DNA of 64,000 nucleotides from the IMG/VR virus record IMGVR_UViG_2582581241_000004; one strand, given 5' to 3'. Under the pieces are notes generated by a model. That model saw nothing but the letters and a program-made list of their open reading frames with translations. It searched no databases and had not been told where the DNA came from. Made by a program: the position numbers and the translations under genes. The stretch's first letter is position 1. The number at the start of each line of letters is the position of its first letter. Below are positions 1,260 to 33,826 of this stretch, in pieces. The stretch comes from a virus.

Positions 1260-1287
1260 GGTGAATCGGGCGCGTGAAAATCACAAG
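1260..1287 (-). promoter_or_regulatory. recurrent 28-bp promoter-like motif, copy 1
   Basis: minus strand CTTGTG-ATTTTCAC-GCGCCCGA-TTCACC, same spacing as eight other copies. Confidence 0.65.
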
Positions 1288-1463
1288 CCGTTTTGAGCAG
1301 GTGACTCGATCCGCCGCATTTCTTTCCACATCGCAACCTCGCGAGCAGCATGAGCCTCGACGTATCTACCCCACGCCTCTATCTTCTCGTCATCGGTTTT
1401 TGCATGGGCGAAATCTAGAAGAGCCTTCTCGACAGGATCTCTTTCATTACTGGATTCCATCAC
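1281..1463 (-). CDS. small hypothetical protein
   Basis: 60-aa ORF whose start overlaps the stop of the CHAP gene. Confidence 0.5.
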   Translation of the reverse strand: MMESSNERDPVEKALLDFAHAKTDDEKIEAWGRYVEAHAAREVAMWKEMRRIESPAQNGL

Positions 1464-1966
1464 TCGATCTCCCTGTAGGCGATGACATTCCGAGCCGGGA
1501 ATCGTTTTATGCTGAAGCGTCCAGACTGATTTCCGCCCGCCAGATAGGGATTCCCGTCTTCATCGAGGGCACGGACGGTGCCGACATGATGCGGAAGCAC
1601 CGCGACGGCGCCGGGATGCGGCGCCGTCGGTCGTCCGACGCGCGCCCAGTCCCGAGCTCGCAATATCCAATAGTGCCGCCCCGTCGCCTCGGAAGCGACG
1701 ATGCTCATCGCCGCACCGCACCATGGCCCCCGAAATCCCGTGAAGTTCCTCGCGCCGACATATCTCTGCGCGACGGCCAGCAGACTCCCGCCGCCGGCAA
1801 TGACCGGCAGGGACGCATGCGCCCGCGATCTCGATTTCCGGACCTGCGGCGCCGGCGGCTGCGGACCGCCGAACAGGCCTCCGAAGAAATCCTCCAGCGG
1901 ATTGGCGGCGGCGAACTGCACCGTCAGCAGCAGCACCAGGACGACAAGAAAAAGGATCGTGATCAC
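1460..1966 (-). CDS. exported CHAP-family (TIGR02594-like) cell-wall amidase
   Basis: N-terminal hydrophobic signal segment, then PWCGAAM (Cys), HHVG (His) and GGNQS motifs. Confidence 0.75.
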   Translation of the reverse strand: MITILFLVVLVLLLTVQFAAANPLEDFFGGLFGGPQPPAPQVRKSRSRAHASLPVIAGGGSLLAVAQRYVGARNFTGFRGPWCGAAMSIVASEATGRHYWILRARDWARVGRPTAPHPGAVAVLPHHVGTVRALDEDGNPYLAGGNQSGRFSIKRFPARNVIAYREIE

Positions 1967-1994
1967 GGCGCGGGCCGTCCATGGATTCGATTCA

Positions 1995-2465
1995 TCAACA
2001 TGCGATCCTCTCCTTTTCCCTCAGGCTCCACATCGTCTCCACCGCGTCCACGACGACGCCCTCGGATGCATATCGAACGCGATGCACGGGCACACCGGTC
2101 TCGAAGGAAATGACGCCGAGCGATTTCCCCTGCGAGCGCAGTTCCCGCAGCCGCTCGATCTCCTCCCGTCCCGGCGCCCTGAACCTCGGCTGGACGCCGG
2201 CGCGGCGCAGACACATCGACACCGCGGCGGTGGACACCCCGGCGCGCCGCGCCATCTCGGCCTGCGGGATACCCTCATCCCGCCACCTCAAGGCGTCCTC
2301 GCGCCTCAGGCGTCGATTGGGATGCCCGGCAAGCTCCGGCGCCGCGCAGCGGACGACCTGTGCGACGGCGTATTCCGGAATCCCGGTCGCCTCGGAGATC
2401 GCCGCATAGCCCAGTTTCCGCTGCCGCAGATCGAGGATCGCGGCGACTTCCTCCTTCGGCGTCAT
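1995..2465 (-). CDS. tandem helix-turn-helix protein (three HTH repeats)
   Basis: repeats LGYAAISEATGIPEYAV, IPQAEMARRAGVSTAAV, KSLGVISFETGVPVHRV. Confidence 0.7.
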   Translation of the reverse strand: MTPKEEVAAILDLRQRKLGYAAISEATGIPEYAVAQVVRCAAPELAGHPNRRLRREDALRWRDEGIPQAEMARRAGVSTAAVSMCLRRAGVQPRFRAPGREEIERLRELRSQGKSLGVISFETGVPVHRVRYASEGVVVDAVETMWSLREKERIAC

Positions 2466-2674
2466 CGCGTGTCGCCTCCGGAGTCCTCCAGCGCCTTCTC
2501 GAGGACATGGATCCTTTGACGCAGCGTCTCGTTCTCCTCGATCAGCGGCGCGACCTTGGTGGCGTGAACCTCCTCGAGCACCTGCTCGATCAGGCGCCCG
2601 AGAGCCTGCGTCACGATGGATCCCTTGGCGAATTCGAGAGCCTGAAGACGCAGTTCATTGGATCGCTTGCTCAT
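2462..2674 (-). CDS. small coiled-coil hypothetical protein
   Basis: start reassigned to MSKRSNE, coupled to both neighbours; heptad LIEENETLRQRIHVLE. Confidence 0.55.
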   Translation of the reverse strand: MSKRSNELRLQALEFAKGSIVTQALGRLIEQVLEEVHATKVAPLIEENETLRQRIHVLEKALEDSGGDTR

Positions 2675-3519
2675 TGGGAGTCCACTCCCTTGCCGAGAAC
2701 GCGAAGCCGCTCGATTTCGTGAAACAGCGCATCGGCCTGCGAGTAGCTCCCCGTTGCGACGCCGGCCTCGAAGGCCATGCGGACGACCCCCGCATTCTTG
2801 CCGTCGGGATCGTCCAGCAGGCCGAGGATCTCCGTCAGAGGATCGCCGCGATATCTGACCAGATCGCGATGCCAATGTTCGCGCTTTTCTTTCAGCCACC
2901 AGACGATGCGGGAAAGCCGGTCATCCTCCGATGTGCGGGACAGGGGATCGAATTTCGACGATGGAGCCGCGAACGGCGAGCCCTTGGTAGCCGCCTTCTT
3001 GTTCCAGTATTCGGGGGCGTATTGCACCCATTTGCCGTCGGGGGCGATGAGAAAGATCGGGATGAAACCGAGCGCCTCGCTGTCCCAGATCGCATGACAG
3101 CCGTTGCGATACGGGTCCAGCCATTCGAGAGGCGTCGTCTCGAACGCGCGCTCGCTGTCGCTCCTCGACGCCCCAAGATCGATGACACAGAACCCGCTCT
3201 CGTCTTCTTTTCCATCCGAGCGCCGAATGTCGTCCTTCCCGATCGGCAGCACGAGTTCGTAGTAGCAAATGCGATTATAGGGCTCCGACCCGGTATGCTC
3301 CCACCGCAATTGCAGGCGCGGCGCCGGAAGACCCTCGGGAAGGCATTCCTGCGGCGGATCGTAATCCACGCGAAGCGCGCCGTTCAGTTCGCCGTGTTCC
3401 TGGGCGAGCTCCGTTTCTATTCCGTCGACTATGCCGTCGACAATCCGCTTTTCGAGACCCTTGGTCGCCTCCCTCGCCAGGGCGCGGGCCTTGGATTTCC
3501 AGCTAATGGTCTTCGACAT
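2671..3519 (-). CDS. hypothetical phage protein
   Basis: 282-aa ORF with GGAGG RBS, downstream of promoter motif copy 2. Confidence 0.65.
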   Translation of the reverse strand: MSKTISWKSKARALAREATKGLEKRIVDGIVDGIETELAQEHGELNGALRVDYDPPQECLPEGLPAPRLQLRWEHTGSEPYNRICYYELVLPIGKDDIRRSDGKEDESGFCVIDLGASRSDSERAFETTPLEWLDPYRNGCHAIWDSEALGFIPIFLIAPDGKWVQYAPEYWNKKAATKGSPFAAPSSKFDPLSRTSEDDRLSRIVWWLKEKREHWHRDLVRYRGDPLTEILGLLDDPDGKNAGVVRMAFEAGVATGSYSQADALFHEIERLRVLGKGVDSQ

Positions 3520-3701
3520 CCCGACGTCCCTCCACCACCGTTCTTCGATTGAGATATCGGGTGAAGGGCAATCGATTCGTCGTCAAGCTGCCTTACAACG
3601 GACAGGACTCCCTCACTCATGGCGCCGGAATCGTAACGACCGACTATCCATCGTGCGCCGTCCTCGGGATCGATCTCAGGCTGGTCGTCAATTGTCGTCA
3701 T
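3429..3701 (-). CDS. possible small hypothetical protein
   Basis: MTTIDD start next to the upstream stop, but the 3' part overlaps a promoter motif and the next gene. Confidence 0.3.
   Translation of the reverse strand: MTTIDDQPEIDPEDGARWIVGRYDSGAMSEGVLSVVRQLDDESIALHPISQSKNGGGGTSGCRRPLAGNPRPAPWRGRRPRVSKSGLSTA
3560..3587 (-). promoter_or_regulatory. recurrent 28-bp promoter-like motif, copy 2
   Basis: CTTGAC-GACGAATC-GATTGCCC-TTCACC, contains GANTC. Confidence 0.7.
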
Positions 3702-3703
3702 GA

Positions 3704-4435
3704 TCACCGTGCCCACTGCCGCGTCGCCAGGATCTCCTCGGCTCGCTCGTATGCGTCATCCTGATCATCGTAGCGTTCGTTCGCGAAGGCGACGATGGCC
3801 GAGGCATTCCATGTCTCTTCAACGCGCCACGACCCGTTCAGGAATTCGAGGGCGTCGGCTTGAAACGTCTCTCCCGAAGGCGCTCCGGTGCATTCGTCGC
3901 CGTCCGCATAGCCGACGATGACCGGATACCAGCCGTCTCCACGCGTCGGCTTGACGTCGCCATAGTCGTCCTCGCTGATCGCCTTCCAGGGATAGACGGC
4001 GGGACCGTCCTTCCTCAGGATGCCGGCGTTCATCTGCTCGACACGCAGGAGCGCATGCAAGATACAGTGCACGATCGCCATGCTTTCGCGCTCGCGGATC
4101 AGATGTCCGTTGTTTTGGAGATCGACCGCGAACACGCCGTCGAACAGCGCCGGCGGGAATTCCTCGATCATCCGCTCGTCGGCGCCGGCGCGATGATAGT
4201 CGGGTCCAATGTCCGCGTCGCCCGAAATCCCGCACCATCCCGAGCGATACCACCAGCCGGGGAATATCGCCTCGACCAGATCGCGGGAGCCTTGCAGCGA
4301 AAACACGCGATCTTGAACGGATGCCGATCGTTCTCCGATCACCCGGCGGATCTCGAACGCGAGTGCCCCCGTCGGCGCGTCCTCGCAATTCTCGATGGCC
4401 CTGATCGCTTTCTTCAGATTCTCGATGCGCGACAT
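3704..4435 (-). CDS. hypothetical phage protein
   Basis: start reassigned to MSRIENL with AAGGAG RBS. Confidence 0.65.
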   Translation of the reverse strand: MSRIENLKKAIRAIENCEDAPTGALAFEIRRVIGERSASVQDRVFSLQGSRDLVEAIFPGWWYRSGWCGISGDADIGPDYHRAGADERMIEEFPPALFDGVFAVDLQNNGHLIRERESMAIVHCILHALLRVEQMNAGILRKDGPAVYPWKAISEDDYGDVKPTRGDGWYPVIVGYADGDECTGAPSGETFQADALEFLNGSWRVEETWNASAIVAFANERYDDQDDAYERAEEILATRQWAR

Positions 4436-4445
4436 GTTGATCTCC

Positions 4446-5456
4446 TTATTCCGCAGCGACAGGCAGCGACAGCGATTGGTTGACTCTACGATCCAACACG
4501 TCGATCCACGGCTGCCACTCCGGAAGCGGCGGGAGATTGTTGACGGCCTTGACCTGTCTGAGATTGGTGGAGTGATCCCGCTCATATAGGAAGATCATCG
4601 ACCTGCCGACCTCCGCCGTCAGGAACACCTGCATTCCCTTGTCACCGCGATCCTTCCGTAGCGACCAGATGCCGAACGGCGGCGGCTGAAGACGGGCGCC
4701 GACGTAGCGATCATAGGAGCCGCGCCCGACGCAATGGCCCTGGCTCTCGGTCTCGCGCCGGAGTTCGTCCGCCGTTTCCAGGCGAATCCAATACATGCCG
4801 TCTTCGAGCACGATCCTCTCGCCGGCGCCGGTCTCCTTGCGCGACACCGTGATCGGAGTGGCATCCGTGCGTTGGATTTTCCGACCCTCGATAGCGACGT
4901 GCCACTCATGCGAAGCACGAAGAGCATCGGCCATCGACATTCTGGGAACCTTGAGCGCCTCGCGTGTCGGAAGCGAGCAGAACCAGTCGTAGATGTAGTT
5001 CATGTCGCGAATGGCTTTGTTGACGAACAGCATCAGAAGCCATGGCTGGCCGTTGAATGAAATTCGCAAACCTGAATAAGGCGTTGGATCGTCCACACTG
5101 TTCGGATGGAACGTCGGGCTTCCGGCTTTGAGACACGTGTCGTCGTCGATGCCGGGAATTAGCGTCACTGGACGCTCCACATATCCACGTCGGGAGAGCC
5201 TCATCAAATCGTCGCCTGCAATGACGAAGTTGTCGATGCCGCCTCCGTTCTGCGGGCGCGCCACCAACATCTGCAATCGGACGACCTCCTTCACGAAGCG
5301 CCGCTTCACGAAGAGACGCCAGGCCTCTATTCTCTTCATGCCGATTGAAAGGCCTTCGGCGCAGGTGATGACAATGCCGGAGTGGCCGGCCATGCCGTCG
5401 ACGTCCGTGACATTCACCTGCATCCTGTCCACGTAATCGTAATTCGCGAATTTCAT
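4446..5456 (-). CDS. PcfJ-like domain protein
   Basis: C-terminal LETADELRRETESQGHCVG...Y...IWSLR motif typical of the PcfJ family. Confidence 0.7.
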   Translation of the reverse strand: MKFANYDYVDRMQVNVTDVDGMAGHSGIVITCAEGLSIGMKRIEAWRLFVKRRFVKEVVRLQMLVARPQNGGGIDNFVIAGDDLMRLSRRGYVERPVTLIPGIDDDTCLKAGSPTFHPNSVDDPTPYSGLRISFNGQPWLLMLFVNKAIRDMNYIYDWFCSLPTREALKVPRMSMADALRASHEWHVAIEGRKIQRTDATPITVSRKETGAGERIVLEDGMYWIRLETADELRRETESQGHCVGRGSYDRYVGARLQPPPFGIWSLRKDRGDKGMQVFLTAEVGRSMIFLYERDHSTNLRQVKAVNNLPPLPEWQPWIDVLDRRVNQSLSLPVAAE

Positions 5457-6733: not shown

Positions 6734-6939
6734 CCCTCCACCTGTTCCGCCATCATTTCCGCACGCGCCCGCGCCAGATAAGGCTCCTGCAATTCGTCCG
6801 AGAGAAAGCCGAATCCCCAGGGCAGCAGCGCGCCCTTTGCCCGGCATTCGACTTCGAAGATCCGTGCGGCGCGTCCGTAGACTTCGAAGTCGATGACGGT
6901 CGGCGCGTCGGACTGCTTGGGTTGTTTGCGCTTGGCCAT
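6730..6939 (-). CDS. small hypothetical protein
   Basis: MAKRKQPK start, coupled to the next gene. Confidence 0.5.
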   Translation of the reverse strand: MAKRKQPKQSDAPTVIDFEVYGRAARIFEVECRAKGALLPWGFGFLSDELQEPYLARARAEMMAEQVEG

Positions 6940-6943
6940 CGCG

Positions 6944-7291: not shown

Positions 7292-7298
7292 GATCGAT

Positions 7299-7376
7299 GT
7301 CCTCGGACGGAATCCCGGTCCGTTCCCGGCGACCCCATGCCGCCGGGCTGTATTTCGTCAGCGTGGATCAGAGGAC
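7299..7376 (-). other. intergenic multi-hairpin element
   Basis: closing stem GTCCTC/GAGGAC encloses three hairpins. Confidence 0.4.
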
Positions 7377-8867
7377 GGCTATGCCGTGCACGCTCAGGGA
7401 TCTCAGCGCGCCGATACGGTCCGCGAAGCCCTTCGTCACCGCGAGGTCATACGGCTCTTCGAGTCCGTCGAAGCCCGCCTTCAGGCGAATGACGGTCTTC
7501 CCGAGCGGATCGTAGACGACGGCCTCGACGCGATCCTGGATATCGACGATTCGACGGACCGCCAGCTCCTGCGACGACGAAATGTGTTCGACGCGGGCCG
7601 CCGCCTCGGCATTTCGATTCCGCAACAGCGCGACGTCGGCGACATGCCCCGTGATCTCCTCGCGCAGCTTGGAGATCACGTGATCCTTTTCTGCGACCAG
7701 GGATTCGAGACGCCAGATTTCCTCTTGCCGAGCGAGCGTTGACGCCTGCTCCGTCTTCAGATGCGCCCGCAGCGACTCCGTTTCGTCGCGGACCTGCGCC
7801 TTCGATGCCCGCTCCTCTTTCAGATTGCGCTCCAGCACGTCGATCGTCGCGTTGGCGCCGAGAATGGTGTCGGCCTTGTCCTTGATCTGCACTTCTTGGT
7901 TCCGGACGAGTTCCACTTGATTCTGGATGTATCCCAGAACAGACTCTAGACGCGTAAACGGAGTAAACGTACGGAGCGCCTCGGAAGCGTCCCAAAGGAA
8001 ATTTTCGATAGCGACGGATGCCGACGAAACCTTTTGCGTCGTGAGTTCTCTGATCTGCGCTTCCAGATCGCGAACTTTCATCGTCAGTTTGAAGTTCAGG
8101 CCGTTCTGCTCGCGGATGCACGCCACTTGCGTCGCGAACCATTTCGTCGCCGCCTCGAGGTCCGGAATGTCGCGTCCGCCGAGTTTCTTTACGTCGGCGA
8201 GGAAGGTGGAGACGGCATTCTTGAGTTCCGCCGCCTCGTTGCGCTTCCGAATGTCTTCGGCGCCCGAAAGGAAGTTCGCGAAGGAATTCCCCCATCCCGC
8301 GAGTTTCTTCTCCAAGTCGGCGATCTTATCCGCAGCCTCGCGCCGTTCGCGGTCCGACCGTTCCTTCTCGCGATCCAGGCCGAAATCCAGGGCGACGCGG
8401 ACACCGGAGTTCGTCAGAAACGAATAACCGCCCCGTCTTTCCACCCATCCCCTTTCGACCGCTATCAGACGATCGGTCTGGGATGCGATGCCGTCATCGG
8501 AAGTCGGGCCATCGAGGAATAGTTGCCGCAGCGTGGCGTAGCCGCGATGCTTTCCGGAGTCGTCCCCTCCGTCCCCGCCGCTTCCAGCAGGCACCGCCCT
8601 CCCAGGCGCGAAGGCTTCGGAGACCTTCTCGGCGCCGTTGTTCTCGTTGTCGTCGGGATAAAGCCGGGTGACGGGGACGGCCTCGTTGTCGTTCGTGATC
8701 TTCAGCCATTCACCGGGATTCGTCACATCCACAGATCGAACCGCCGTGACGCGATCGACGAAGTTCGTCGTGACGACATACCCCGCGCCGCCGCTTTTAT
8801 GCCGCACGATATCGCCGACTTCGAGTTCCTTGAGACTCGTCAGCGCTACTTCATTCTTCCTCGCCAT
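7368..8867 (-). CDS. coiled-coil phage protein
   Basis: start MARKNEV with GGAAGG RBS; KOW/SH3-like N-terminus (LEVGDIVRHK) and long heptad region. Confidence 0.65.
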   Translation of the reverse strand: MARKNEVALTSLKELEVGDIVRHKSGGAGYVVTTNFVDRVTAVRSVDVTNPGEWLKITNDNEAVPVTRLYPDDNENNGAEKVSEAFAPGRAVPAGSGGDGGDDSGKHRGYATLRQLFLDGPTSDDGIASQTDRLIAVERGWVERRGGYSFLTNSGVRVALDFGLDREKERSDRERREAADKIADLEKKLAGWGNSFANFLSGAEDIRKRNEAAELKNAVSTFLADVKKLGGRDIPDLEAATKWFATQVACIREQNGLNFKLTMKVRDLEAQIRELTTQKVSSASVAIENFLWDASEALRTFTPFTRLESVLGYIQNQVELVRNQEVQIKDKADTILGANATIDVLERNLKEERASKAQVRDETESLRAHLKTEQASTLARQEEIWRLESLVAEKDHVISKLREEITGHVADVALLRNRNAEAAARVEHISSSQELAVRRIVDIQDRVEAVVYDPLGKTVIRLKAGFDGLEEPYDLAVTKGFADRIGALRSLSVHGIAVL

Positions 8868-8962: not shown

Positions 8963-8990
8963 GGTGAATACGAAGTGATTCGTCGTCAAG
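8963..8990 (-). promoter_or_regulatory. recurrent 28-bp promoter-like motif, copy 3
   Basis: CTTGAC-GACGAATC-ACTTCGTA-TTCACC. Confidence 0.7.
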
Positions 8991-9055: not shown

Positions 9056-9826
9056 TCAGTGGTCGCGTTCGGCTGACCAAAGATCCATGATGGAAGACGC
9101 GAAGCCGGTCGGAATCAGAATTTTCCGAGGAATCCCGGAGAACTCGATCTCCCCTGCGATACCTGGAGACGCATTGATGGATGTAATCTGCCTTGTGACG
9201 GCCCGAACCTTTTCGAGAAGCCGGTCGAAGTTCTTCTGACGCCCGTCGCGGGCCGCCGTCATGTCGGCGAGGTCGAATTCCAGACGCTCGATCTCGGCGT
9301 CCTTCTTCGCAAGCACCTGCTCGAGCGCCTTCGATATGACCTTCCGGAGTGTATAGCCCTGCGCGGTGTCGTGGAGTTCGACCTTCAGCTTCGAGATCTC
9401 GGTGTCCTTCGCATTGAGATCGCGCTTCAGATCGGCGATCTCCCGGTCGCGAGCCGCGATATTCCTCACCAGATTTGCACGCTCGAGGGATTTCTCGTCG
9501 AGCCGCGCTCCGAGATTCCGATTATTCTCCTCCAGCTCCGCGATCCTCGCGACGACGCCTTCGCCGACCTCGAGGATATCCGCCTCCGATTTGACGGTGG
9601 GGCTGCCAGACACGGCGCTTACTATTACCCTGGGATCGGCATAGTGCTCGTCGTCGATCCAGTTGATCGACGCAGCCGAGCCGTCGTGCGTCTCGCTTCC
9701 TTGGATCTGCAATCCCGGCGCGATCTCCTCGACCGGCACGCCGATGCTGTGCGCGAGATGCGCGGCTACGAAGGAAACGTATTTCTTCGCCGTGAATGCC
9801 GGGTTTTCCTTGATGTCGATGCTCAT
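9056..9826 (-). CDS. coiled-coil phage protein
   Basis: start MSIDIKE with GGAAGGA RBS; heptad repeats. Confidence 0.65.
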   Translation of the reverse strand: MSIDIKENPAFTAKKYVSFVAAHLAHSIGVPVEEIAPGLQIQGSETHDGSAASINWIDDEHYADPRVIVSAVSGSPTVKSEADILEVGEGVVARIAELEENNRNLGARLDEKSLERANLVRNIAARDREIADLKRDLNAKDTEISKLKVELHDTAQGYTLRKVISKALEQVLAKKDAEIERLEFDLADMTAARDGRQKNFDRLLEKVRAVTRQITSINASPGIAGEIEFSGIPRKILIPTGFASSIMDLWSAERDH

Positions 9827-9885: not shown

Positions 9886-9913
9886 GGTGAATCGAGAGCG
9901 ATTCGCCGTCAAG
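9886..9913 (-). promoter_or_regulatory. recurrent 28-bp promoter-like motif, copy 4
   Basis: CTTGAC-GGCGAATC-GCTCTCGA-TTCACC, two GANTC sites. Confidence 0.7.
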
Positions 9914-14132: not shown

Positions 14133-14882
14133 TCAGTGTCCTCCCCTGGCGCTGTCCGGCACGTAGGCGACCAGCTTGTGGTGCGCGCAGTAGCTGCGCC
14201 CGACGACCGGATGACCGCAGCAGGTCACGCCGAACGGGATGACGACCGCCTCGGGCTCGACAACGGGATCGGGCTCGACGACCGCCGATTCCTTCGCCTG
14301 CGCTTCTTGTTCCGCGACATCGTCGATGATTTCGGCGAACAGCGGCATGGCGCGGGCCTTCCGCTTCGCCTTTTTCTTCGGCGTCTTCGGCGGCGTCGGC
14401 GTCTCGATTGCGTCGTCGATCCACGCGCACTGGACCGACGTCCTCTCGACGAACGGGATCCGCAGCGACGTCGGGGCGTCCATGACGACGGATTTCGGGA
14501 TGGCCTTCTCCGGCGTTGACGACGCCCTGAGACTCCGGTCGAACAAGGGCAGTCCACTGACCATGGCCGCCATCCGCTTCGACTGGACGCGCCTCGCGAT
14601 TCCGGCGTCACGCGGCCCGGCGCCCTTCCCGCGTCTCGGCCTCTGCGGGCACGCTTCCTGACCGAGCGTCAATCGTTTGGCGGACCGCACATCCTGCCCG
14701 AGCCTCACTTCCTGCTTGGGAGGCACCCACGCGACGCCTTTATCGCGAAGCCTCTTCAGCTTTCCGAGCACCGCGCTGCGCGGCATATCCAGCATCCGCC
14801 CCATCGCGCTGTAGGACATGCCGCCAGCGACGACGAGGGACTGGAGCCTCGATTCTCTTTCCATCGTCCACGATATCGTCAT
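14133..14882 (-). CDS. gcrA: GcrA-like cell-cycle regulator
   Basis: N-terminal WTMERESRLQSL...SYSAMGRML..PRSAVLGKLKRL and C-terminal CAW...CG.PV..RSYCAHH..VAY, matching both GcrA domains. Confidence 0.75.
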   Translation of the reverse strand: MTISWTMERESRLQSLVVAGGMSYSAMGRMLDMPRSAVLGKLKRLRDKGVAWVPPKQEVRLGQDVRSAKRLTLGQEACPQRPRRGKGAGPRDAGIARRVQSKRMAAMVSGLPLFDRSLRASSTPEKAIPKSVVMDAPTSLRIPFVERTSVQCAWIDDAIETPTPPKTPKKKAKRKARAMPLFAEIIDDVAEQEAQAKESAVVEPDPVVEPEAVVIPFGVTCCGHPVVGRSYCAHHKLVAYVPDSARGGH

Positions 14883-15868: not shown

Positions 15869-15983
15869 GTCCTCATTCCGCGCACAATTTTCAATGTCGT
15901 CAAATTATTTTTTGAAAAATTAACCAAACCTCAAAATGGATGACAAGGTTAGACCCACGTTCTCGCGACGTTCTGAGAACATG

Positions 15984-16030
15984 CCAATGTTGACACCTTG
16001 CGATGATCTTTTTTCATAAAATATGAAAAA
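15984..16030 (+). promoter_or_regulatory. TTGACA-containing motif and adjacent palindrome
   Basis: CCAATGTTGACACCTTG at 15984-16000 (recurs at 19665 and 19742); TTTTTCAT-N5-ATGAAAAA at 16010-16030. Confidence 0.55.
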
Positions 16031-16167
16031 CTAGATTGACGGACATGAGGAGCGAGCTCACATTGATATCAACGAGCGACGGAGTGCCGCCGATCCCTGG
16101 GATCGGAACCATCGGTCGGATGAACGGACGCCCGAAGGGGTGGTGTCTCCAAGGACGGGAGAAAATC

Positions 16168-19799: not shown

Positions 19800-20135
19800 T
19801 TAGGAGACATCCAGCTTCCTCGGCGTCGCCAGCAGGCCGTCCCAGGATCCGTCGCCGACGCGGTGGAGGACGCGGGCGATCTGTTTCCTGCTCTCCCGTG
19901 CGTATCCCGCCTCTTCCAACATCCGCAGCGCGATTTCGACGACCTCGCCGATTTCCGACTTTCGGCGCCACGCCAGCCTGACATCCGATTCATGTCTGTC
20001 GCGCAGGACGACGCCGATCGCCCGGACGAGGAAACTGTCGATGACGCGGGGATCCGCCAGCCCCGCCTCGGCGTCCCTTTCGCGTTTCAGTCTCTGCCGT
20101 CCGCGATCCGATCTCTTTCTCGTTTCATTGCTCAT
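19800..20135 (-). CDS. hypothetical basic protein
   Basis: 111-aa ORF with GGAGGG RBS, downstream of promoter motif copy 5. Confidence 0.65.
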   Translation of the reverse strand: MSNETRKRSDRGRQRLKRERDAEAGLADPRVIDSFLVRAIGVVLRDRHESDVRLAWRRKSEIGEVVEIALRMLEEAGYARESRKQIARVLHRVGDGSWDGLLATPRKLDVS

Positions 20136-20159: not shown

Positions 20160-20187
20160 GGTGAAGGGAATTCATGAAAATCGCAAT
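20160..20187 (-). promoter_or_regulatory. recurrent 28-bp promoter-like motif, copy 5
   Basis: ATTGCG-ATTTTCAT-GAATTCCC-TTCACC. Confidence 0.65.
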
Positions 20188-22931: not shown

Positions 22932-23141
22932 ATTCGAATCCTCCCAAGGTGCAAGCGAACCGGCGCCGAAAAAAGCGGAAGCGAAAAATCCCGCCGCCCC
23001 GCTTGACGTTCGCACCGGCATGACTCAGGATTCCAATGTCGCCGCGGATCACCAGTCCCGGCGCGTCATCGTCCTGGCCATCGAGGCGGCACCCTCGATG
23101 GCCTTCTTTTTTTTGCGATGTTAACGATTTGAAAAATTGCG

Positions 23142-23169
23142 CTTTGAATTTTCGCGCCGCGGATTCATT
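23142..23169 (+). promoter_or_regulatory. recurrent 28-bp promoter-like motif, copy 6
   Basis: CTTTGA-ATTTTCGC-GCCGCGGA-TTCATT then CGTCGAAAT. Confidence 0.7.
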
Positions 23170-23265
23170 CGTCGAAATTGTCGAGCCCTTCCGAGTGGAG
23201 TCGACGAGTGGGTGGCGTACCCGGCGGCTTGGAAACTCGCCGCCGGGGGAGTTTCAGGCAAACAC

Positions 23266-23667
23266 GTGCCGGCAATCGAGAACGCATACAAATCGCATCT
23301 TATCGCGGTGATCCGTGAATTCGCACGGGGCTATGACCGCACGATTGCGACGGTGCTTCTCAAGAGCCCCGTGCGGAACGCGCACCTCCTGAAGCGGCTC
23401 GAAGCCGGAGGCGACATCACGCTTCGCAGTTACGACCGCGCAATCGAATATTTCTCGGAACATTGGCCACCCGGCGTCGAATGGCCGCGCATGCCGAAAA
23501 TCGTGCACGTCGTCCCGAGAGAAGATCTCGACATAACGCCGCCGCCGGTTCCCCGTCCCAGGAATCCGAATCTCGATCCGGAAATCCTCATCGTCCAGTC
23601 GCAACGCGCCAGGGGCGGAAGGACGTTGAAGCGCCGTCCTCGCCACACGCCCGAAAAGGAGACGTGA
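23266..23667 (+). CDS. small putative DNA-binding phage protein
   Basis: LKRLEAGGDITLRSYDRAIEYFSEHWP.GVEWP, a motif typical of alphaproteobacterial prophage proteins. Confidence 0.65.
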   Translation: MPAIENAYKSHLIAVIREFARGYDRTIATVLLKSPVRNAHLLKRLEAGGDITLRSYDRAIEYFSEHWPPGVEWPRMPKIVHVVPREDLDITPPPVPRPRNPNLDPEILIVQSQRARGGRTLKRRPRHTPEKET

Positions 23668-23669
23668 GG

Positions 23670-23906
23670 ATGGAAGCACCCGTCGTCGCCCCGGAGGATT
23701 TCAAGCGCGATCTCGCAAAGCGGCTTCAAAACCATTTCGCGTTCCGCGCCGACGCGATCGGAATCGAAGAGCTCGCTACCGGCCGCTGCGCGTGGCCGCT
23801 CGGAGAATCGGGAACGGAGGAGTTCGGCTATTGCGGCGCCGCGACCTCCAATGGCCGGACATATTGCGCGCACCATCATGGCGTCGCCTATAGGAAACCC
23901 GCATGA
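23670..23906 (+). CDS. stand-alone GcrA C-terminal domain protein
   Basis: IEELATGRCAWPLGE.G..EFGYCGA....RTYCAHH..VAY without the N-terminal HTH. Confidence 0.75.
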   Translation: MEAPVVAPEDFKRDLAKRLQNHFAFRADAIGIEELATGRCAWPLGESGTEEFGYCGAATSNGRTYCAHHHGVAYRKPA

Positions 23907-25963: not shown

Positions 25964-25968
25964 AGCCT

Positions 25969-27645: not shown

Positions 27646-27676
27646 ATAAAAATAATTTCGAGGCCTCGAAAAATCC

Positions 27677-27704
27677 CTTTGAATTTTCACGGCGCCGCTT
27701 CACC
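27677..27704 (+). promoter_or_regulatory. recurrent 28-bp promoter-like motif, copy 7
   Basis: CTTTGA-ATTTTCAC-GGCGCCGC-TTCACC then GGTCGAATC. Confidence 0.7.
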
Positions 27705-27741
27705 GGTCGAATCGTCGAACGCATCGACCGGGAGAACGGAC

Positions 27742-28188
27742 ATGACGGAAATCATCAATCGCCCCACGAATCCCCAGGGAGACAAGGATCTCGCGAACGG
27801 CTGGTATTGGCTGGCGATCGGCATCGGCAACAAGGAGAAGCGGCCCGTCGAATTGAAGGACGGCGTCTGGCAGTGGGGATATGCCGGCGGCGGATTTCCG
27901 AAGACCTGTGTTTTCGTGCTGTCGAGAGTCGAAGACCCCGAGGATGCCGTCGAGGCCGGCTACTATTGGGGGCGGTTCCGTTCGGACGAGCCGTCCGACC
28001 TCGCATGGATTTTCGATGTCTCCGAAAGCGGACAAGTTCGGTGGAATGACAACATCTACAATCTCAGCGAAATCGAGATCGTCTGCCGCGTGCCGACGCC
28101 TGGCGATCTGGCGGAATTGGAAAGGCTGGCGAAGGCGCGCGAGCCGGGTTCGACGGACTTGCCATTGTCCGTCGAACCCGGACTCTAA
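27742..28188 (+). CDS. hypothetical protein with duplicated G[WY]YW motif
   Basis: LANGWYWL and VEAGYYWG; GGGAG RBS. Confidence 0.65.
   Translation: MTEIINRPTNPQGDKDLANGWYWLAIGIGNKEKRPVELKDGVWQWGYAGGGFPKTCVFVLSRVEDPEDAVEAGYYWGRFRSDEPSDLAWIFDVSESGQVRWNDNIYNLSEIEIVCRVPTPGDLAELERLAKAREPGSTDLPLSVEPGL
28144..28181. repeat. perfect 15-bp inverted repeat
   Basis: CCGGGTTCGACGGAC-N8-GTCCGTCGAACCCGG. Confidence 0.85.
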
Positions 28189-28195
28189 AATTCCG

Positions 28196-28223
28196 CTTTG
28201 AATTTTCTGATCGCGGATTCACT
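28196..28223 (+). promoter_or_regulatory. recurrent 28-bp promoter-like motif, copy 8
   Basis: CTTTGA-ATTTTCTG-ATCGCGGA-TTCACT then GGTCGAATC-ATG of tnpB. Confidence 0.7.
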
Positions 28224-28232
28224 GGTCGAATC

Positions 28233-29438
28233 ATGATCCTCCACAGGGCGAACATCTACCGTCTCTATCCGACCGACGAGCAGGCCCAGCGCCTGACGGA
28301 GTGGGTCGGATCCTGCCGATTCATGTACAACGTCGCGCTGGAGCAAAGGCGCGACTGGTGGAGGCCGGGGCGCCGTTTCAATTTCGCCACGCAGTGCCGG
28401 GAAGTCACGGCGGTGCGTGAAGAAGTGGATTGGATCAAGGACGTTCCGGTTCATGCCCTGCAACAAGCGATGAGGGATCTCGATCGCGCCTTCGTCAATT
28501 TCTGGGAAGGGCGGGCCGAATATCCGAAGCCGCGGCGGAAATTCGAGAACGACAGCATGCGCTTTCCTGATCCGAGCGCCTTCGGATTTCGCCGCATATC
28601 GAAGCATTGGGGCGAAGTGAAACTCCCCAAGCTCGGATGGGTGAAGCTGCGTTGGGACAAGGCGATTCCTGGAACGGTGAAGAACATCACCGTCTCGTTG
28701 AAGACCGGGATTTGGACCGTCGCGGCGCAATACGAAACGGAAATCGCGGATCCGCAGCCTTCGGAATTGCCGCCGGTCGGCATCGACCGCGGAGTCGCCG
28801 TCTTCGCTGCCATGTCGGACGGGACGAAGGTCGAGCCGGGAAACTTCGGCAAGAAGGCGCGGAAGAAGCTGTGCAAGGCGCAGCGGAATCTGTCGCGGAA
28901 GAAGAAAGGATCAAACAATTGGAAAAAGCAGAAGGCGCGGGTCGGGAAGATACAGGGTAAAATAGCCCGTCAGCGCAAGGACTATCTGCATAAACTCTCC
29001 ACCGACATTGCCAAGAGCCACGGCGTCGTCGCGATGGAGAATCTGAAGGTCAGGAACATGACGGCTTCCGCCGCCGGCACCGTCGAAGAGCCGGGGAAGA
29101 ACGTCCGTCAGAAGGCGGGATTGAACCGCTCCATTCTCGATCAGGGATGGGGGATGTTCCGCACGATGCTGAACTACAAGCTGGCGGAGCGCGGGGGAAG
29201 GCTGGTGGAGGTGAATCCCGCCTTCACGAGTCAGACATGCTCCGAGTGCGGCGTCGTCGACGCGAGGAGCCGCGCCAGTCAGGCGCGTTTCGTCTGCGTC
29301 GCTTGCGGACACGAAGAAAACGCCGACGTGAATGCGGCGAAGAATATCCTAAGCCGGGCGGGCTGCTCGGTTCTGCCTGTGGAGGGACAGCGTGGTAGAC
29401 GCCCCGATGAAGCAGGAACCATCCGGAGGGCTGCGTGA
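28233..29438 (+). CDS. tnpB: TnpB RNA-guided endonuclease (IS200/IS605 family)
   Basis: N-terminal YRLYPTDEQ; RuvC GIDRG, AMENL, NADVNAAKNI; zinc finger CSECG..CVACG. Confidence 0.95.
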   Translation: MILHRANIYRLYPTDEQAQRLTEWVGSCRFMYNVALEQRRDWWRPGRRFNFATQCREVTAVREEVDWIKDVPVHALQQAMRDLDRAFVNFWEGRAEYPKPRRKFENDSMRFPDPSAFGFRRISKHWGEVKLPKLGWVKLRWDKAIPGTVKNITVSLKTGIWTVAAQYETEIADPQPSELPPVGIDRGVAVFAAMSDGTKVEPGNFGKKARKKLCKAQRNLSRKKKGSNNWKKQKARVGKIQGKIARQRKDYLHKLSTDIAKSHGVVAMENLKVRNMTASAAGTVEEPGKNVRQKAGLNRSILDQGWGMFRTMLNYKLAERGGRLVEVNPAFTSQTCSECGVVDARSRASQARFVCVACGHEENADVNAAKNILSRAGCSVLPVEGQRGRRPDEAGTIRRAA

Positions 29439-29686
29439 TGCGCGCCCTTGCAGGAAACCCGCGCCCTTCGGGGACGGGTGGAGGTCAGTATTCGAACGAC
29501 AGCGGACGCTGGACCGAGCACAGGACGCTCGTTTTCCGGCACGACGGCATCCTTTGGGCCGCCGACTATGAACGCGGGCTGACGGAAAATCAGGAAACCG
29601 AGGCGTTCGAGGGCGAGACGACGGACGCCTACGAAGTCGAGGCCCGCGACAAGGTGGTCGTCGAATACGTGAGAAAGGCCGCCTGA
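29438..29686 (+). CDS. phage protein whose N-terminus derives from the IS right end
   Basis: ATG overlaps the tnpB stop; reads through the right end into GRWTEHRTLVF.HDG..W...Y..GLTENQE. Confidence 0.55.
   Translation: MRALAGNPRPSGTGGGQYSNDSGRWTEHRTLVFRHDGILWAADYERGLTENQETEAFEGETTDAYEVEARDKVVVEYVRKAA
29439..29487 (+). mobile_element. IS605-family right end (3' part of reRNA scaffold)
   Basis: GGAAACCCGCGCCCTTCGGGACGGGTGGAGGTCAG: subterminal hairpin then TCAG, resembling IS605 right ends. Confidence 0.7.
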
Positions 29687-30018
29687 TGCGCCTCACGTCG
29701 GACGAACTGATCGACGCGATTGCCCGCGAGATCGAGCCTCTCGCGTTTTCCTTCAGGGAGCCCGACGACTCGGAGCGCCACCGGATGTTGTCGGCGCGGA
29801 TGACGGCGAAACAAATACTCGGCATCGTTGTCGCGCAGGATGTCGAACCCGGCCTGTATTGGGCGACGCACAAGGGCGAAGACGAGGCCGCAGTGGTCAA
29901 CGTGGACGACAGGGGGCGCGTCAATACGATCGGGCGAACCTTCTCCGGATACGTATTCAACTACGATGTCGGAGAAAGGATCGTGATGCCGGCGATGGAA
30001 GGGAAGAAGGCGACATGA
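29686..30018 (+). CDS. hypothetical protein (GLYW motif)
   Basis: TGATG coupling; VEPGLYWA resembles the repeats in 27742-28188. Confidence 0.6.
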   Translation: MRLTSDELIDAIAREIEPLAFSFREPDDSERHRMLSARMTAKQILGIVVAQDVEPGLYWATHKGEDEAAVVNVDDRGRVNTIGRTFSGYVFNYDVGERIVMPAMEGKKAT

Positions 30019-30767
30019 GCGACAAATCCGATATCCGTCTTCAGGTCGTCTATCGGCCAATCGACGAACTGATCCCCTATTCGCGGAACAGCCGCACGCA
30101 TTCGCCGGCGCAGCTTCGAAAGCTCGCCGAGGCGATCAAGCGCTATGGTTTTACAAATCCGGTGCTTCTCGACGGCAAAAACGGAATCCTGGCAGGGCAT
30201 GGTAGAACGGCGGCTGCAAAAGAAGCTGGGCTGAATAAAGTTCCGACGATCGACCTCGGCCACCTCTCAAATGAAGAACAGCGCGCATACATCATCGCGG
30301 ACAATAAGCTTTCCGACGAGTCTTCATGGAACGACGACATGCTCGCCCTCGAACTCTCGGAACTCAAATCCCTCGACTTCGACCTGTCGCTCACCGGCTT
30401 CGACGACCAGGAGATCAAGAGCCTCCTCGAACCCGAGCCGCCGAAGGCCGAGGAGCCGAAGCCGACTCCGGGCGCGCCTGTGTCCCAGCCCGGCGACGTG
30501 TGGGTGATGGGGTCGCATCGCCTCGAGGTCGGCGAGTCCGATCACGCCGTCGCCGACGCGATCTGCGGCCTCTGGCATTCGCATCTGGATTCGCCGGCGG
30601 TGCTGGAGGCGACGGGACAGACGTTCGCCGAGGTCATGACGGAGCGGAATCCATCGGCGCCGGTCGTCCCGAAGCTGACGCGGGCCAAGGCGCGGGATGC
30701 CTTGGCAAAGGCTGGGAAGCCGCGGGCGAAGAAGGACGACGCGCCGAAGGGAGGAACCTACCATTGA
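30015..30767 (+). CDS. ParB/Srx-domain protein with truncated methyltransferase linker
   Basis: IDELIPYSRNSRTH, GFTNPVLLD, ILAGHGR, YIIADNKL; then PGDVWVMGSHRL..G but no MTase motifs. Confidence 0.8.
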   Translation: MSDKSDIRLQVVYRPIDELIPYSRNSRTHSPAQLRKLAEAIKRYGFTNPVLLDGKNGILAGHGRTAAAKEAGLNKVPTIDLGHLSNEEQRAYIIADNKLSDESSWNDDMLALELSELKSLDFDLSLTGFDDQEIKSLLEPEPPKAEEPKPTPGAPVSQPGDVWVMGSHRLEVGESDHAVADAICGLWHSHLDSPAVLEATGQTFAEVMTERNPSAPVVPKLTRAKARDALAKAGKPRAKKDDAPKGGTYH

Positions 30768-31213
30768 CTGTCATCGTCTACAGGGATGGATTTTTGGCGA
30801 GCGATTCGAGAGTGAGTTGCAGCGGCGTCGTCGCGCCGCACGACGCGCGGAAAATCCATCGCGCCTTCGACGGCGGAATGCTCGGAATCACCGGCAAGCT
30901 CGCTCACATCGGGCCGCTCTTGCGCCTGCTGAAACGAGAGGAGCCGAACGACGACGAGATCAACACCGGAGAGGCGACGCTCATACGTGTCATGCCCGAT
31001 CTCAGTGTGCGTGAATACGGCGGCGCGTCGTATTTCGACTATGGACAGATCGACATGGCCGCATGGGGATCGGGCCATGAAGCCGCGACGGCGGCCCTTC
31101 TCATGGGCGCCAACGCGAAACGAGCCGTCGAGATCGCATGCCAGGTCGTTCCGAGCTGCGGCGGCCCGGTGCAGTGCATGAGATTCAGGAATCTACTCGC
31201 CGAAGCGGCATAG
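30764..31213 (+). CDS. proteasome-beta/HslV-like Ntn hydrolase
   Basis: TTG start with GGAGG RBS, Thr at position 2, LASDSR, RKI, AAWGSG, CGGPV. Confidence 0.75.
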   Translation: MTVIVYRDGFLASDSRVSCSGVVAPHDARKIHRAFDGGMLGITGKLAHIGPLLRLLKREEPNDDEINTGEATLIRVMPDLSVREYGGASYFDYGQIDMAAWGSGHEAATAALLMGANAKRAVEIACQVVPSCGGPVQCMRFRNLLAEAA

Positions 31214-31271
31214 GCTCTCGAAAGCGAAGGTGGCCTTCGCTTTGTCTTCGAGGAATTGAGGAAACGGCAGG

Positions 31272-32456
31272 ATGTTCGAGGGAATCGTCGATTTCGCGCA
31301 GCACAATCAGTTCTTGACCGGCGGCGTCGGCGCGATGGCGCTGGGTTGGCTGGCATATCAAGCGAAATCGCTGCCCGATCGGATCATGAATGCGATCGAC
31401 AAGAACCTGCTCGTCCACGTCACCGTGTCGGACAATCGATTTCATTTCTCCGACGTCGACCGGCTCCTGTCGGCGCACCGCGTCCGCCGGTTTTCGAAGA
31501 ATTTCGATCTATCCTGCGGCTCGCTCGTCGTCGGCTACGGCAGCGGATGGGCGCACTGGAACGGCACGTGGATCCGCTACACGAAATCGAAGGACACTTC
31601 GCGGCTTCACGACATGTCGACGATCGCCATGACGTTCATGACGACGGACGAGCGCACGGCCCAGGCGTTTATCGACGAGGCGATTCCGAAGGACGTCTCC
31701 GAACGCCTCGTTGTGAACATCGAGGCCGGCAACGGTTGGACGCAAGTCATGAAGCGCCGGCGGCGCCTGGATTCCGTGTTTGCCAACGACGACGTCGGAC
31801 GGCGGATCGTCGAGCGGCTGCGCTGGTTCGAGGATAATCACGAATGGTATGAGCGGCGCGGCATTCCGAGGAAAATCGGCTTCGTGCTCCACGGGCCGCC
31901 GGGCACCGGCAAGACGTCGCTCATCCAGGCCGTCGCCTCGGAACTGGGGTTCGAAATCCGGTATCTCCGGAGCCTGCTGTCGATCTCCGAGCGGATGTCG
32001 GACATCACACCGAAGACGCTGCTCGTCGTCGAGGACATCGACACTCTCGCAGAAGGACTGAATAGGACGCCAGATCACGCGCAGCGCCGCCGGGACTCGG
32101 ACGCCTCCGAGAAGGAGGCCGCAGCCGCCGGCTGGGCGATGCACGAGATATTGAACACGCTGGACGGCATGCAGACGCCCGACGCACTTAAATTCGTGAT
32201 CACGACAAACCACCTCGACCGCCTCGACCCGGCGATCCTGCGCCCCGGCCGTGTCGATCACATCTACGAAATCGGGCCGCTGGAAATCGACGAGGCGCGC
32301 CGCATGTTCCGGGCCTTCTACGACCGCGACGGAATTCGTGGATACGTCCCGACGACCGGCGCCGCCCTTCAGGCCATGTTCTCCACGATGATCGCCGAGG
32401 AGGCCGAGGATGCGCTGGATGCGGCTGCGATGGACGGGCTTCGCGAGGCGGCGTGA
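31272..32456 (+). CDS. BCS1-like AAA+ ATPase with N-terminal TM helix
   Basis: GIPRKIGFVLHGPPGTGKTS, LLVVEDID, LNTLDG, TTNH.DRLDPAILRPGRVD. Confidence 0.9.
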   Translation: MFEGIVDFAQHNQFLTGGVGAMALGWLAYQAKSLPDRIMNAIDKNLLVHVTVSDNRFHFSDVDRLLSAHRVRRFSKNFDLSCGSLVVGYGSGWAHWNGTWIRYTKSKDTSRLHDMSTIAMTFMTTDERTAQAFIDEAIPKDVSERLVVNIEAGNGWTQVMKRRRRLDSVFANDDVGRRIVERLRWFEDNHEWYERRGIPRKIGFVLHGPPGTGKTSLIQAVASELGFEIRYLRSLLSISERMSDITPKTLLVVEDIDTLAEGLNRTPDHAQRRRDSDASEKEAAAAGWAMHEILNTLDGMQTPDALKFVITTNHLDRLDPAILRPGRVDHIYEIGPLEIDEARRMFRAFYDRDGIRGYVPTTGAALQAMFSTMIAEEAEDALDAAAMDGLREAA

Positions 32457-32575
32457 GGATCGTTCAAAGGCAAAGCGATGGATGAATTCACTTTTTGTGA
32501 AATCCAAAATCGCCGGGCGACGGCCCTCCCCGATCTCCGGAAACTCCGGTATGAAGGCCGCCGCAGGAGATTTCG

Positions 32576-33793
32576 ATGAAATATCCGTTTCCTCTCATTT
32601 CGAGCATCGACGACATCGAGGCGCACCGCGACGCCGGGCTCATCCATGAGGCGTTCAAGCGCGGCGAGCGTCACAACGGCACGATCGTCTACGACTACGC
32701 CTACATGGACAATCACGTCTTTCCTGCGATCGGCGACTCCCCGTTCGCGGCGTTGGCGCGGGAGCTTCGCGGGCTGACCTTCGACGCGAGGACCGGCGCG
32801 CTGCTGTCGCGGCCCTACCAGAAGTTCTTCAACGCCGGCGAGCGCGAGGAGACCCTGGCGGCGAACTTGCCCCTCGGCGACAGCCATCTTGTACTGGAGA
32901 AGCTCGACGGCTCGATGATCCACGCCTTCGAGCAGCCGGGCGGCGGGATCGCATTCGCCACGCGGTGGGGTGTCACGACGATCTCCAGGCAGGCGCTGGC
33001 GTTCTACGAAGCCGAAGATGCCGACGGCCACGGGCGCGCCGCGCTGCGCGATCTGATCGCCGCCGGTCTGACGCCGATCTTCGAATGGACGTCGCCCGAC
33101 AATATCGTCGTCGTCCGCCACGATACCGCGACACTGACGCTGACCGGCCTGCGCCGCCGCGATACGGGCGAGCAGATGCCCCACGGCGATCTCGCCGATC
33201 ATGCGCGCCTGCTGCGCGTTCCGCTCGTTCGCGCCTTCGATCCCGTCGCCGAGTGGAATTCGTTCACCGCGACGGCGATGGCCGAGATCGAGGGCGAGGG
33301 CTACGTCGTGCGCTTTGCCGACGGCCACATGGTAAAGGTGAAAAACTCGCTCTACGCCCGCGTCCATAAATTCAAGGCCAACCTTTCGCAGCCGAAGGAC
33401 GCGGCGGAGATCGTCGTCTCCGGCTCGCTGGACGACATGCTGCCGCATCTGTCCGCCGTCGAGCGGGGACGGATCGAGGCCTATAGGGATCTGCTGTTCA
33501 AGCGGATGCGCGACTGCGCCGGCGTCGTGTCCGCCACCGTCGAGCGGGCGAAGGCGGAGATCGCGACGGACGACCCGCGCGAACGCCAGAAGGCTTTTTG
33601 GATCGGCTACGCCGCCCCGCTCGGCTCCACGCTGGCCGGCAGCGCCACCGACGTCTGGCTCGGGCGCCGCGATGCGATGGAGGCCGTCGGGGCGTTGGTG
33701 CTGAAGAACATCGCGACGAATGCGCGCTTCGATCGGCTCGCCGAGGAACTCGGGCTTCCGAAACTGGAATTCGGGTTCGATGGGGATCAGTGA
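32576..33793 (+). CDS. T4 Rnl1-type RNA ligase
   Basis: ELRGLTF, RPYQKFFN.GE, motif I EKLDGS, FEW, motif IV EGYVV, motif V KVK. Confidence 0.9.
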   Translation: MKYPFPLISSIDDIEAHRDAGLIHEAFKRGERHNGTIVYDYAYMDNHVFPAIGDSPFAALARELRGLTFDARTGALLSRPYQKFFNAGEREETLAANLPLGDSHLVLEKLDGSMIHAFEQPGGGIAFATRWGVTTISRQALAFYEAEDADGHGRAALRDLIAAGLTPIFEWTSPDNIVVVRHDTATLTLTGLRRRDTGEQMPHGDLADHARLLRVPLVRAFDPVAEWNSFTATAMAEIEGEGYVVRFADGHMVKVKNSLYARVHKFKANLSQPKDAAEIVVSGSLDDMLPHLSAVERGRIEAYRDLLFKRMRDCAGVVSATVERAKAEIATDDPRERQKAFWIGYAAPLGSTLAGSATDVWLGRRDAMEAVGALVLKNIATNARFDRLAEELGLPKLEFGFDGDQ

Positions 33794-33798
33794 TTCCG

Positions 33799-33826
33799 CT
33801 TGCGATTTTCAGGACGGCGATTCAAA
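33799..33826 (+). promoter_or_regulatory. recurrent 28-bp promoter-like motif, copy 9
   Basis: CTTGCG-ATTTTCAG-GACGGCGA-TTCAAA, 6 nt after the ligase stop. Confidence 0.65.

Follow-up and report, generated by a model that had tools for sequence, protein, structure and literature searches.

A promoter-like motif private to a 121-kb alphaproteobacterial prophage and its possible link to GcrA and GANTC methylation

The stretch of viral DNA analyzed here, 64,000 nucleotides from IMG/VR record IMGVR_UViG_2582581241_000004 (referred to as the window), carries a short bipartite motif that recurs in front of genes. The window corresponds to C9:941257-1005256 in a genome assembly of 5.13 Mb and is part of a larger unit, C9:931524-1052546, which comprises the window plus ~10 kb on its left and ~47 kb on its right. 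This unit is a 121-kb prophage of an alphaproteobacterium, integrated in tRNA-His. The motif is real and its occurrence is far beyond chance. It appears to represent a promoter class private to the prophage, heading at least 13 non-structural early, middle or accessory transcription units. An earlier, sequence-only reading of the window had interpreted the motif as a set of promoters driven by GcrA, the protein that reads GANTC sites methylated by CcrM in Caulobacter. The present analysis suggests that phage transcription may be tied to the host methylation machinery, and examines how far GcrA may be involved.

A bipartite motif confined to the prophage

The nine 28-nt copies listed in the sequence-only reading were all found exactly at the positions it had given, with their 5' ends at 1287, 3587, 8990, 9913 and 20187 on the minus strand and at 23142, 27677, 28196 and 33799 on the plus strand. 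The loose pattern by which they had been described is weakly specific, with 10 matches in the window versus 3.7 per 64 kb genome-wide. The tenth match in the window, at 50251(-), lies inside a gene and was rejected as a chance match. A position weight matrix trained on the nine window copies gave scores of 24.9-32.0 bits for these copies, or 17.0-27.2 bits when each copy was left out of its own matrix; with the nine-copy matrix the best other site in the window scored 12.3 bits. The scan of the full genome that had been proposed as a check returned 13 top matches, all within C9:940184-1041465, while the best background match in the 5.13 Mb scored 19.5 bits. Four of these 13 lie outside the window and had not been used for training, namely C9:940184(-), C9:1008274(+), C9:1014839(+) and C9:1041465(+). 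A two-block model retrieved 13 strong copies and three weak ones (C9:1041422(-), 1043303(-) and 1051421(+)), and all 16 are intergenic and inside the prophage. In the rest of the host genome neither the matrix nor the two-block model found a promoter with the motif, and the two-block scan found zero copies in the virion-gene block, which spans 34.5-64 kb of the window and continues to C9:1008274.

Genes were called with an in-house caller based on codon usage, which is not a validated gene finder, and were named by Pfam and PHROGs. All 16 copies are oriented in the same way as the next gene. The copies had been described as lying just upstream of transcription units, and for eight of the nine in the window the next start codon is indeed 9-95 nt away. 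Downstream of the ninth (33799) come ~300 nt without an open reading frame and then an intrinsic terminator at 34125-34156; this copy and this terminator thus bracket a unit without open reading frames, running from 33799 to 34156. Terminators or hairpins also occur directly upstream of several copies, for example at 23076-23103. The units headed by the motif comprise anti-defence genes, TnpB genes, genes for nucleic-acid enzymes and regulators, and one predicted non-coding RNA.

Conservation is concentrated in two blocks, which are separated by ~9 nt of unconserved, GC-rich spacer. Both spacer subtypes distinguished previously are real; a division in two proved too coarse, however, and the copies are better described by three classes. 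Class A (n=7) has an upstream A-tract of the form AAAAATCG, followed by CTTTGAATTTTC, (G)ATTCACC and nGTCGAATC. Class B (n=3) has CTTG(Y)GATTTTC and the same box, and in class C (n=3, confined to the left arm) the box is preceded by CTTGACGRCGAATC. The TTG is offset by 1 nt between class A and the other classes, with ATTTTC and the box staying in register. TTCA is invariant in 16/16 copies, and ATTTTC is present in 10 of the 13 strong copies.

In five cases the gene lacks a ribosome-binding site and its ATG follows the box by only 8-9 nt: the three TnpB genes of the prophage, the gene at C9:1008311 and the DNA methylase gene at C9:1051457. In the window, the TnpB gene starts with ATG at 28233, 9 nt past a TTCACT box. 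This arrangement suggests leaderless or near-leaderless mRNAs, and would place the transcription start ~7-10 nt after the box. The TnpB genes (window 28233-29438, C9:938942-940147(-) and C9:1041502-1042695(+), with none elsewhere in the genome) are informative in a second respect. Each is located behind a class A copy, at a distance of 9 nt between box and ATG, and two of them lie within an inverted 1.3-kb duplication of 90.6% identity near both ends of the prophage. The window TnpB shares only 47% protein identity with these two; nevertheless both promoter blocks and the distance from box to ATG are identical, while the spacer is entirely different. Such identical blocks around a different spacer in diverged paralogues are the pattern expected of a constrained bipartite promoter.

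The upstream half of the motif, with an A-tract at the position of the proximal UP subsite and a TTG as -35, looks like a target of host alpha and sigma70. The downstream box had been said not to be a canonical sigma70 -10. This is borne out, as TTCACC is without the A and T that define a -10; in the three rRNA promoters of the host, by contrast, an A/T-rich upstream element is followed by TTGACA-N17-CTATAA. A scan with the sigma70 consensus picked 0 of the motif copies. A regulon of a host alternative sigma factor was considered and rejected, because no host promoter has the motif. Furthermore, to our knowledge the motif fits none of the consensus sequences for sigma32, sigma54, sigma28, extracytoplasmic function (ECF) sigma factors or CtrA. 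Taken as a whole, the signal is real, element-specific and promoter-like, as had been claimed. Its placement, orientation and block structure, its element specificity and its conservation across diverged paralogues make it highly probable that it functions as a promoter.

GANTC sites and a GcrA-type cofactor

The density of GANTC is 2.5 per kb in the host genome, 4.6 per kb in the prophage overall and 8.6 per kb in its intergenic regions, where 100 sites were counted versus 41 +/- 6 in base-shuffled controls. Most copies of the motif had been reported to carry GANTC in or beside it, and this was found for all nine copies in the window. When the copies are aligned on the motif, GANTC is centred at position 12 in three copies (the class C spacer), at position 23 in nine copies, where it overlaps the box as GATTCA and which is the commonest position, and at position 35 in eight copies, just past the box. 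With spacings of 11 and 12 bp, the three positions would lie on one helix face.

The sites also differ in quality. Caulobacter GcrA prefers YGAKTCK/G and acts from boxes in the spacer at -20 +/-1 or -30 +/-2, or from boxes at +2/+5 to +30 (PMC4647560, PMC9976885). Over all 16 copies, 9/11 sites at positions 12 and 35 match YGAKTCG, compared to 12/80 (15%) of the other intergenic GANTC sites and 76/457 of those in coding sequence. Against the other intergenic sites this gives a Fisher p = 1.6e-5, a value that overstates independence since two copies are duplicates. The same GcrA-type box is thus found in two unrelated contexts, in the spacer and downstream of the TTCACC box, and 10 of the 13 strong copies were counted as carrying one at position 12 or 35. 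On the assumption of a start 7-10 nt past the box, the good boxes are centred at ~-23 to -26 and at -3 to +1. A perfect CGATTCG box that is not part of the motif is present at 34404 of the window, in the divergent gap 34389-34540, before genes leading into the virion block.

The genome encodes the proteins expected of such a circuit. A CcrM orthologue is encoded on the host chromosome at C9:1096343-1097008(-), in an open frame of 392 amino acids, and aligns with the whole of Caulobacter CcrM (6PBD) at an E value of 1e-156; by this similarity the host has CcrM, hence a gene for a GANTC methylase. Host GcrA is full-length and canonical, covering positions 1-155 of the Pfam profile. The prophage had been claimed to encode a GcrA of its own, and two GcrA-family genes were in fact found, one full-length and divergent, the other coding for the sigma-binding domain only. 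The full-length phage protein (249 aa; 14133..14882, minus strand) has both domains. Its DNA-binding domain keeps R33, G38, K39 and R42 and has substitutions of I37 to L, N34 to S and W15 to V; its sigma-interacting domain keeps the zinc ligands and Y142/Y151 and is split by a 51-aa insertion (residue roles were taken from PMC5887438). The second protein (78 aa; 23670..23906, plus strand) consists of the sigma70-interacting domain only, with all four zinc ligands, W120, F130, Y142 and Y151 kept.

Two further loci are related to these proteins. The prophage harbours two N6/N4 DNA methylase genes, C9:1023389-1024975, fused to an Mrr-like nuclease domain, and C9:1051457-1052350, which starts 8 nt past a weak copy of the motif. 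The smaller enzyme matches CcrM over generic regions only; GANTC specificity of the prophage methylases, if true, would matter for a role of GcrA. On the host chromosome another GcrA-like locus, C9:625044-625533, has its N- and C-terminal matches in separate frames and an internal TGA; it may be a broken GcrA copy or part of a second mobile element.

GcrA binds region 2 of sigma70 and stimulates open-complex formation (PMC4647560, PMC9976885). The following mechanism can be proposed for the prophage promoters. Host RNA polymerase would be recruited through the upstream half, that is, through the UP-like A-tract in class A and the TTG -35. Because a conserved TTCACC stands in place of a normal -10, firing should need a helper at sigma70 region 2, at the step of open-complex formation. 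The leading candidate for this helper would be a GcrA-type cofactor, either host GcrA or the phage GcrA proteins. Its targets would be CGAATC(R) boxes methylated by CcrM (YGATTCG in the opposite strand), placed at the fixed spacer site in class C or just past TTCACC in class A. Ten of the 13 strong units would then depend on the state of DNA methylation and on the availability of GcrA, and so on the host cell cycle. A contribution of a GcrA-type cofactor to the class A and class C promoters is judged to have a little under an even chance of being real. It is favoured by the quality of the boxes, by their two independent fixed positions, by the presence of genes for all partners, and by a mechanism at the open-complex step that suits a good upstream half without a -10.

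The closest known system is formed by the GcrA/CcrM-dependent sigma70 promoters of Caulobacter crescentus, such as PcsM and PmipZ (PMC4647560, PMC5887438, PMC9976885). As in these promoters, there are methylatable GANTC sites extended to YGAKTCG, located either between -35 and -10 or immediately past the core promoter. Like Caulobacter, the host of the prophage encodes both CcrM and GcrA. A cofactor that acts on sigma70 region 2 and at the open-complex step would also fit promoters whose upstream half is good but whose -10 is defective. Unlike the Caulobacter promoters, those described here form a regulon of a prophage, which supplies GcrA variants of its own.

Other differences from the Caulobacter system weigh against an involvement of GcrA. 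Rather than an ordinary sigma70 core of -35 and -10, the motif has a TTG-type -35 and the TTCACC box, at a distance of 14-15 nt between the TTG hexamer and TTCACC that is short for sigma70. Known GcrA targets keep a normal -10, and since the motif is without one, GcrA alone leaves the conservation of TTCACC, and most of all the invariant TTCA, unexplained. For any plausible start site the centres of the good boxes would be ~3 bp off the windows preferred in Caulobacter, and three strong copies (1287, 20187 and 33799) have no good box. The GANTC at position 23 matches YGAKTCG in 0/9 copies and is of the NGATTCA type, the lowest rank for GcrA. It sits on the -10-like box in these nine copies, whereas GcrA-regulated promoters of Caulobacter almost never have sites on the -10 (PMC4647560). 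The full-length phage GcrA has its N34S substitution in the methyl-reading pocket and its insertion in the sigma-binding domain. With the canonical -10 missing and a loose fit of box positions, the motif would be at most a variant that may work like Caulobacter GcrA promoters.

Comparison between phages speaks on the same side, as the motif was found in none of the relatives compared and thus has no comparative support. It is absent from G103 and G195, prophages from the host's own family whose portals are 48-49% identical. A search of 185,579 species genomes with the extended class A pattern gave a single match, at chance level, and IMG/VR yielded none. The shorter pattern ATTTTC-N10-TTCACC at first seemed widespread in the host family, with ~230 matches versus ~20 for a reversed control in 400 genomes. 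This spread was rejected as a coding artefact, most of the matches examined being the reverse strand of codons for the Walker A motif of ABC ATPases (GESGSGK). The artefact is a caution for motif searches that use reversed patterns as control.

Related phage systems and alternative readings

GcrA-family genes are known from other alphaproteobacterial phages. The phiCbK-like phages of Caulobacter carry a GcrA homologue, gp222, which was proposed to switch on host replication genes; unlike in the prophage, no phage promoter class with GcrA boxes was described (PMC3556154). A scan of alphaproteobacterial phages with a model of the GcrA site revealed no positional signal (PMC9437464). The prophage studied here also differs from phiCbK in having two GcrA-family genes, one for the sigma-binding domain alone, together with a promoter class that carries the boxes.

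Phage T4 offers a parallel of another kind. Its middle promoters re-use host sigma70 through a MotA box together with AsiA, with the -35 replaced and the -10 kept. The prophage motif resembles them as a private motif in many copies, in which part of the sigma70 signal is kept and part is replaced by a phage box, and which is absent from late genes. Unlike the T4 promoters it keeps the -35 and replaces the -10, and no homologue of MotA or AsiA was found.

The same promoters could also be read by a dedicated factor unrelated to GcrA. This might be a sigma factor of the phage that has escaped recognition, a pair of sigma-appropriation proteins, or an activator specific for TTCACC and ATTTTC. GANTC would then be incidental to the consensus, or would merely tune the promoters by methylation as Dam sites do in the IS10 or Mu mom promoters. 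This is a possibility of some weight, though it is more readily doubted than accepted. The presence of TTCA in 16/16 copies and of ATTTTC in 10/13 strong ones is more conservation than a merely weak -10 needs. That no host promoter has the motif makes a phage-specific determinant likely; the block spacing of 14-15 nt and the lack of A-11 and T-7 do not fit sigma70, and the class B copies are without a good GcrA box. The element also has many proteins of no known family and several helix-turn-helix proteins. However, scanning ~100 proteins with Pfam and PHROGs turned up helix-turn-helix proteins but neither a sigma factor nor an RNA polymerase. The gene behind one of the promoters is an Acb2/Tad1-like anti-defence gene, whose product should be required early, ahead of any build-up of phage proteins. 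Moreover, the upstream half resembles a target of host alpha and sigma70, and a dedicated factor leaves the excess of YGAKTCG-quality sites at two fixed positions unexplained.

It can be imagined that the phage GcrA proteins themselves take over sigma70. The full-length phage GcrA and the protein with only the sigma-binding domain would then form a sigma-appropriation system that docks on region 2 of host sigma70, lets the polymerase open promoters without a -10, and displaces host GcrA. This is unlikely. If true, an epigenetic reader would have been hijacked to control an entire regulon of the phage.

Methylation sites in promoters of transposon-type genes have a precedent in IS10, where Dam sites make the transposase promoter methylation-gated. 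As in IS10, the sites of the prophage lie within the -10/start region of such promoters, here those of the three TnpB genes. The methylase differs, being CcrM (GANTC) and not Dam (GATC), and the motif also serves many genes unrelated to transposition.

The blocks might, alternatively, be mainly operators of a phage repressor that acts on many operons, comparable to the C1 operators of phage P1, with promoter elements being secondary. Class A copies contain two inverted repeats, one made up of the A-tract and ATTTTC on either side of CTTTG, the other of GATTC and GAATC, 12 bp apart, over the predicted start site. A large temperate phage would, moreover, have many scattered units that need silencing in the lysogen. 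However, the inverted repeats are missing in classes B and C, and they do not reach past the GANTC pentamers. The 1-nt shift of TTG with the other blocks in register is typical of promoter elements and not of a rigid dimer site, and 16/16 copies aim at the next gene. Predominantly operator function is therefore improbable; it is compatible with the promoter reading and not exclusive of it.

An origin of the motif as left end of TnpB mobile elements (IS200/IS605-type), with the other copies as remnants, could be thought from the three copies directly before TnpB genes, two of them in the 1.3-kb duplication, whose start is 38 nt upstream of the motif, but it is very improbable, because 13/16 copies do not adjoin TnpB and show no flanking similarity, all copies precede unrelated genes in the correct orientation, TnpB and motif are confined to the prophage, and the extended pattern is absent from the species genomes and from IMG/VR, apart from the one chance-level match mentioned above. 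Membership of the IS200/IS605 ends was rejected likewise, as only 3/16 copies adjoin TnpB and the motif is thus not confined to the ends of TnpA/TnpB units.

Individual copies and the prophage that carries them

In the left part of the window all copies are on the minus strand. The class B copy at 1260..1287 (CTTGTGATTTTC...GATTCACC) is located 86 nt before the ATG of gene 157-1173, with a GANTC centred at motif position 23. Three class C copies follow. The copy at 3560..3587 (CTTGACGACGAATCG...TTCACC), 40 nt before gene 2671-3519, has a perfect GcrA-type box in its spacer (CGATTCG on the other strand). The one at 8963..8990, 95 nt before gene 7368-8867, has the spacer box TGATTCG on the other strand and a hairpin upstream, and the one at 9886..9913, 59 nt before gene 9056-9826, combines the spacer box CGATTCG with a GATTC at the TTCACC box. 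The class B copy at 20160..20187, 24 nt before gene 19800-20135, has no GANTC at the three fixed positions and one centred at 37. Between the minus-strand operon with the phage GcrA gene and a plus-strand operon lies an AT-rich divergent region of 251 nt (15869-16119), which is without a motif copy and holds TTGACA; it is probably a differently controlled promoter region.

The remaining copies in the window are on the plus strand. The class A copy at 23142..23169 (A-tract, CTTTGAATTTTC and GATTCATT) comes after the strong terminator 23076-23103 and heads a predicted operon, in which the gene for the sigma-binding domain of GcrA is the second gene. Two class A copies extend into a downstream box: that at 27677..27713 with GTCGAATCG (GAATC 27709-27713), 37 nt before gene 27742-28188, and that at 28196..28232 with GTCGAATCA (GAATC 28228-28232), which serves the TnpB gene at 28233..29438 (OrfB_IS605), one of the three in the prophage. 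The class B copy at 33799..33826 begins 5 nt past the stop codon of an RNA ligase gene, ahead of the non-coding unit of ~300 nt. This unit is closed by the plus-strand terminator, a GC hairpin and T run read directly from the sequence (34125..34160). Rfam and tRNA scans of the window found nothing. To the right of the window, a gene with an Acb2/Tad1 hairpin domain (C9:1014922-1015230), of the anti-CBASS/Thoeris sponge family, is located directly behind the class A copy C9:1014839.

The prophage is bounded by perfect direct repeats of 56 bp, C9:931524-931579 and C9:1052491-1052546. A tRNA-His gene (C9:1052493-1052569) shares its 3' part with the right repeat, and just inside the left one is an integrase-like gene (C9:931728-933110). 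The prophage encodes a portal and an intein-containing terminase, and has a long virion block on the plus strand. The large terminase (36122-38722 of the window, 866 aa) contains a LAGLIDADG homing-endonuclease insert, which is probably the intein. A complete flagellin gene with Flagellin_N and Flagellin_C domains is also present (C9:1037752-1038849), 2.6 kb from one of the TnpB copies, an arrangement reminiscent of the TnpB-derived repressors of prophages that adjoin flagellin genes. The neighbouring cluster C9:1031591-1037566 encodes a PAPS-reductase/DUF3440 protein, a Cas6e-like (CRISPR_assoc) protein and a protein whose RAMP-family match is weak and under the Pfam cut-off. Possibly these genes form a prophage-borne type IV-like CRISPR-Cas module.

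Among cultured phages no match was found, and matches of the portal in phages and plasmids share only 21-33% identity. Gene 27742-28188 has no relatives in genome or viral collections, and for genes 7368-8867 and 23212-23667 a set of 5.8 billion proteins contained no homologue.

The circuit of GcrA and CcrM is known from the chromosome, where it serves the cell cycle, and the publications consulted on phage GcrA proteins propose host targets only, without a link to phage promoters. In the present case several elements come together in the genome of a sequenced host: a private promoter class, fixed boxes of GcrA quality, two phage GcrA-family genes, and host CcrM and GcrA. This makes possible a direct test of the coupling of temperate phage transcription to the methylation and replication state of host DNA, and also provides testable ground for the question of how a promoter without a -10 is opened. 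Even without a role for GcrA, the motif serves as a guide to how transcription units are laid out in a 121-kb phage with hardly any relatives.

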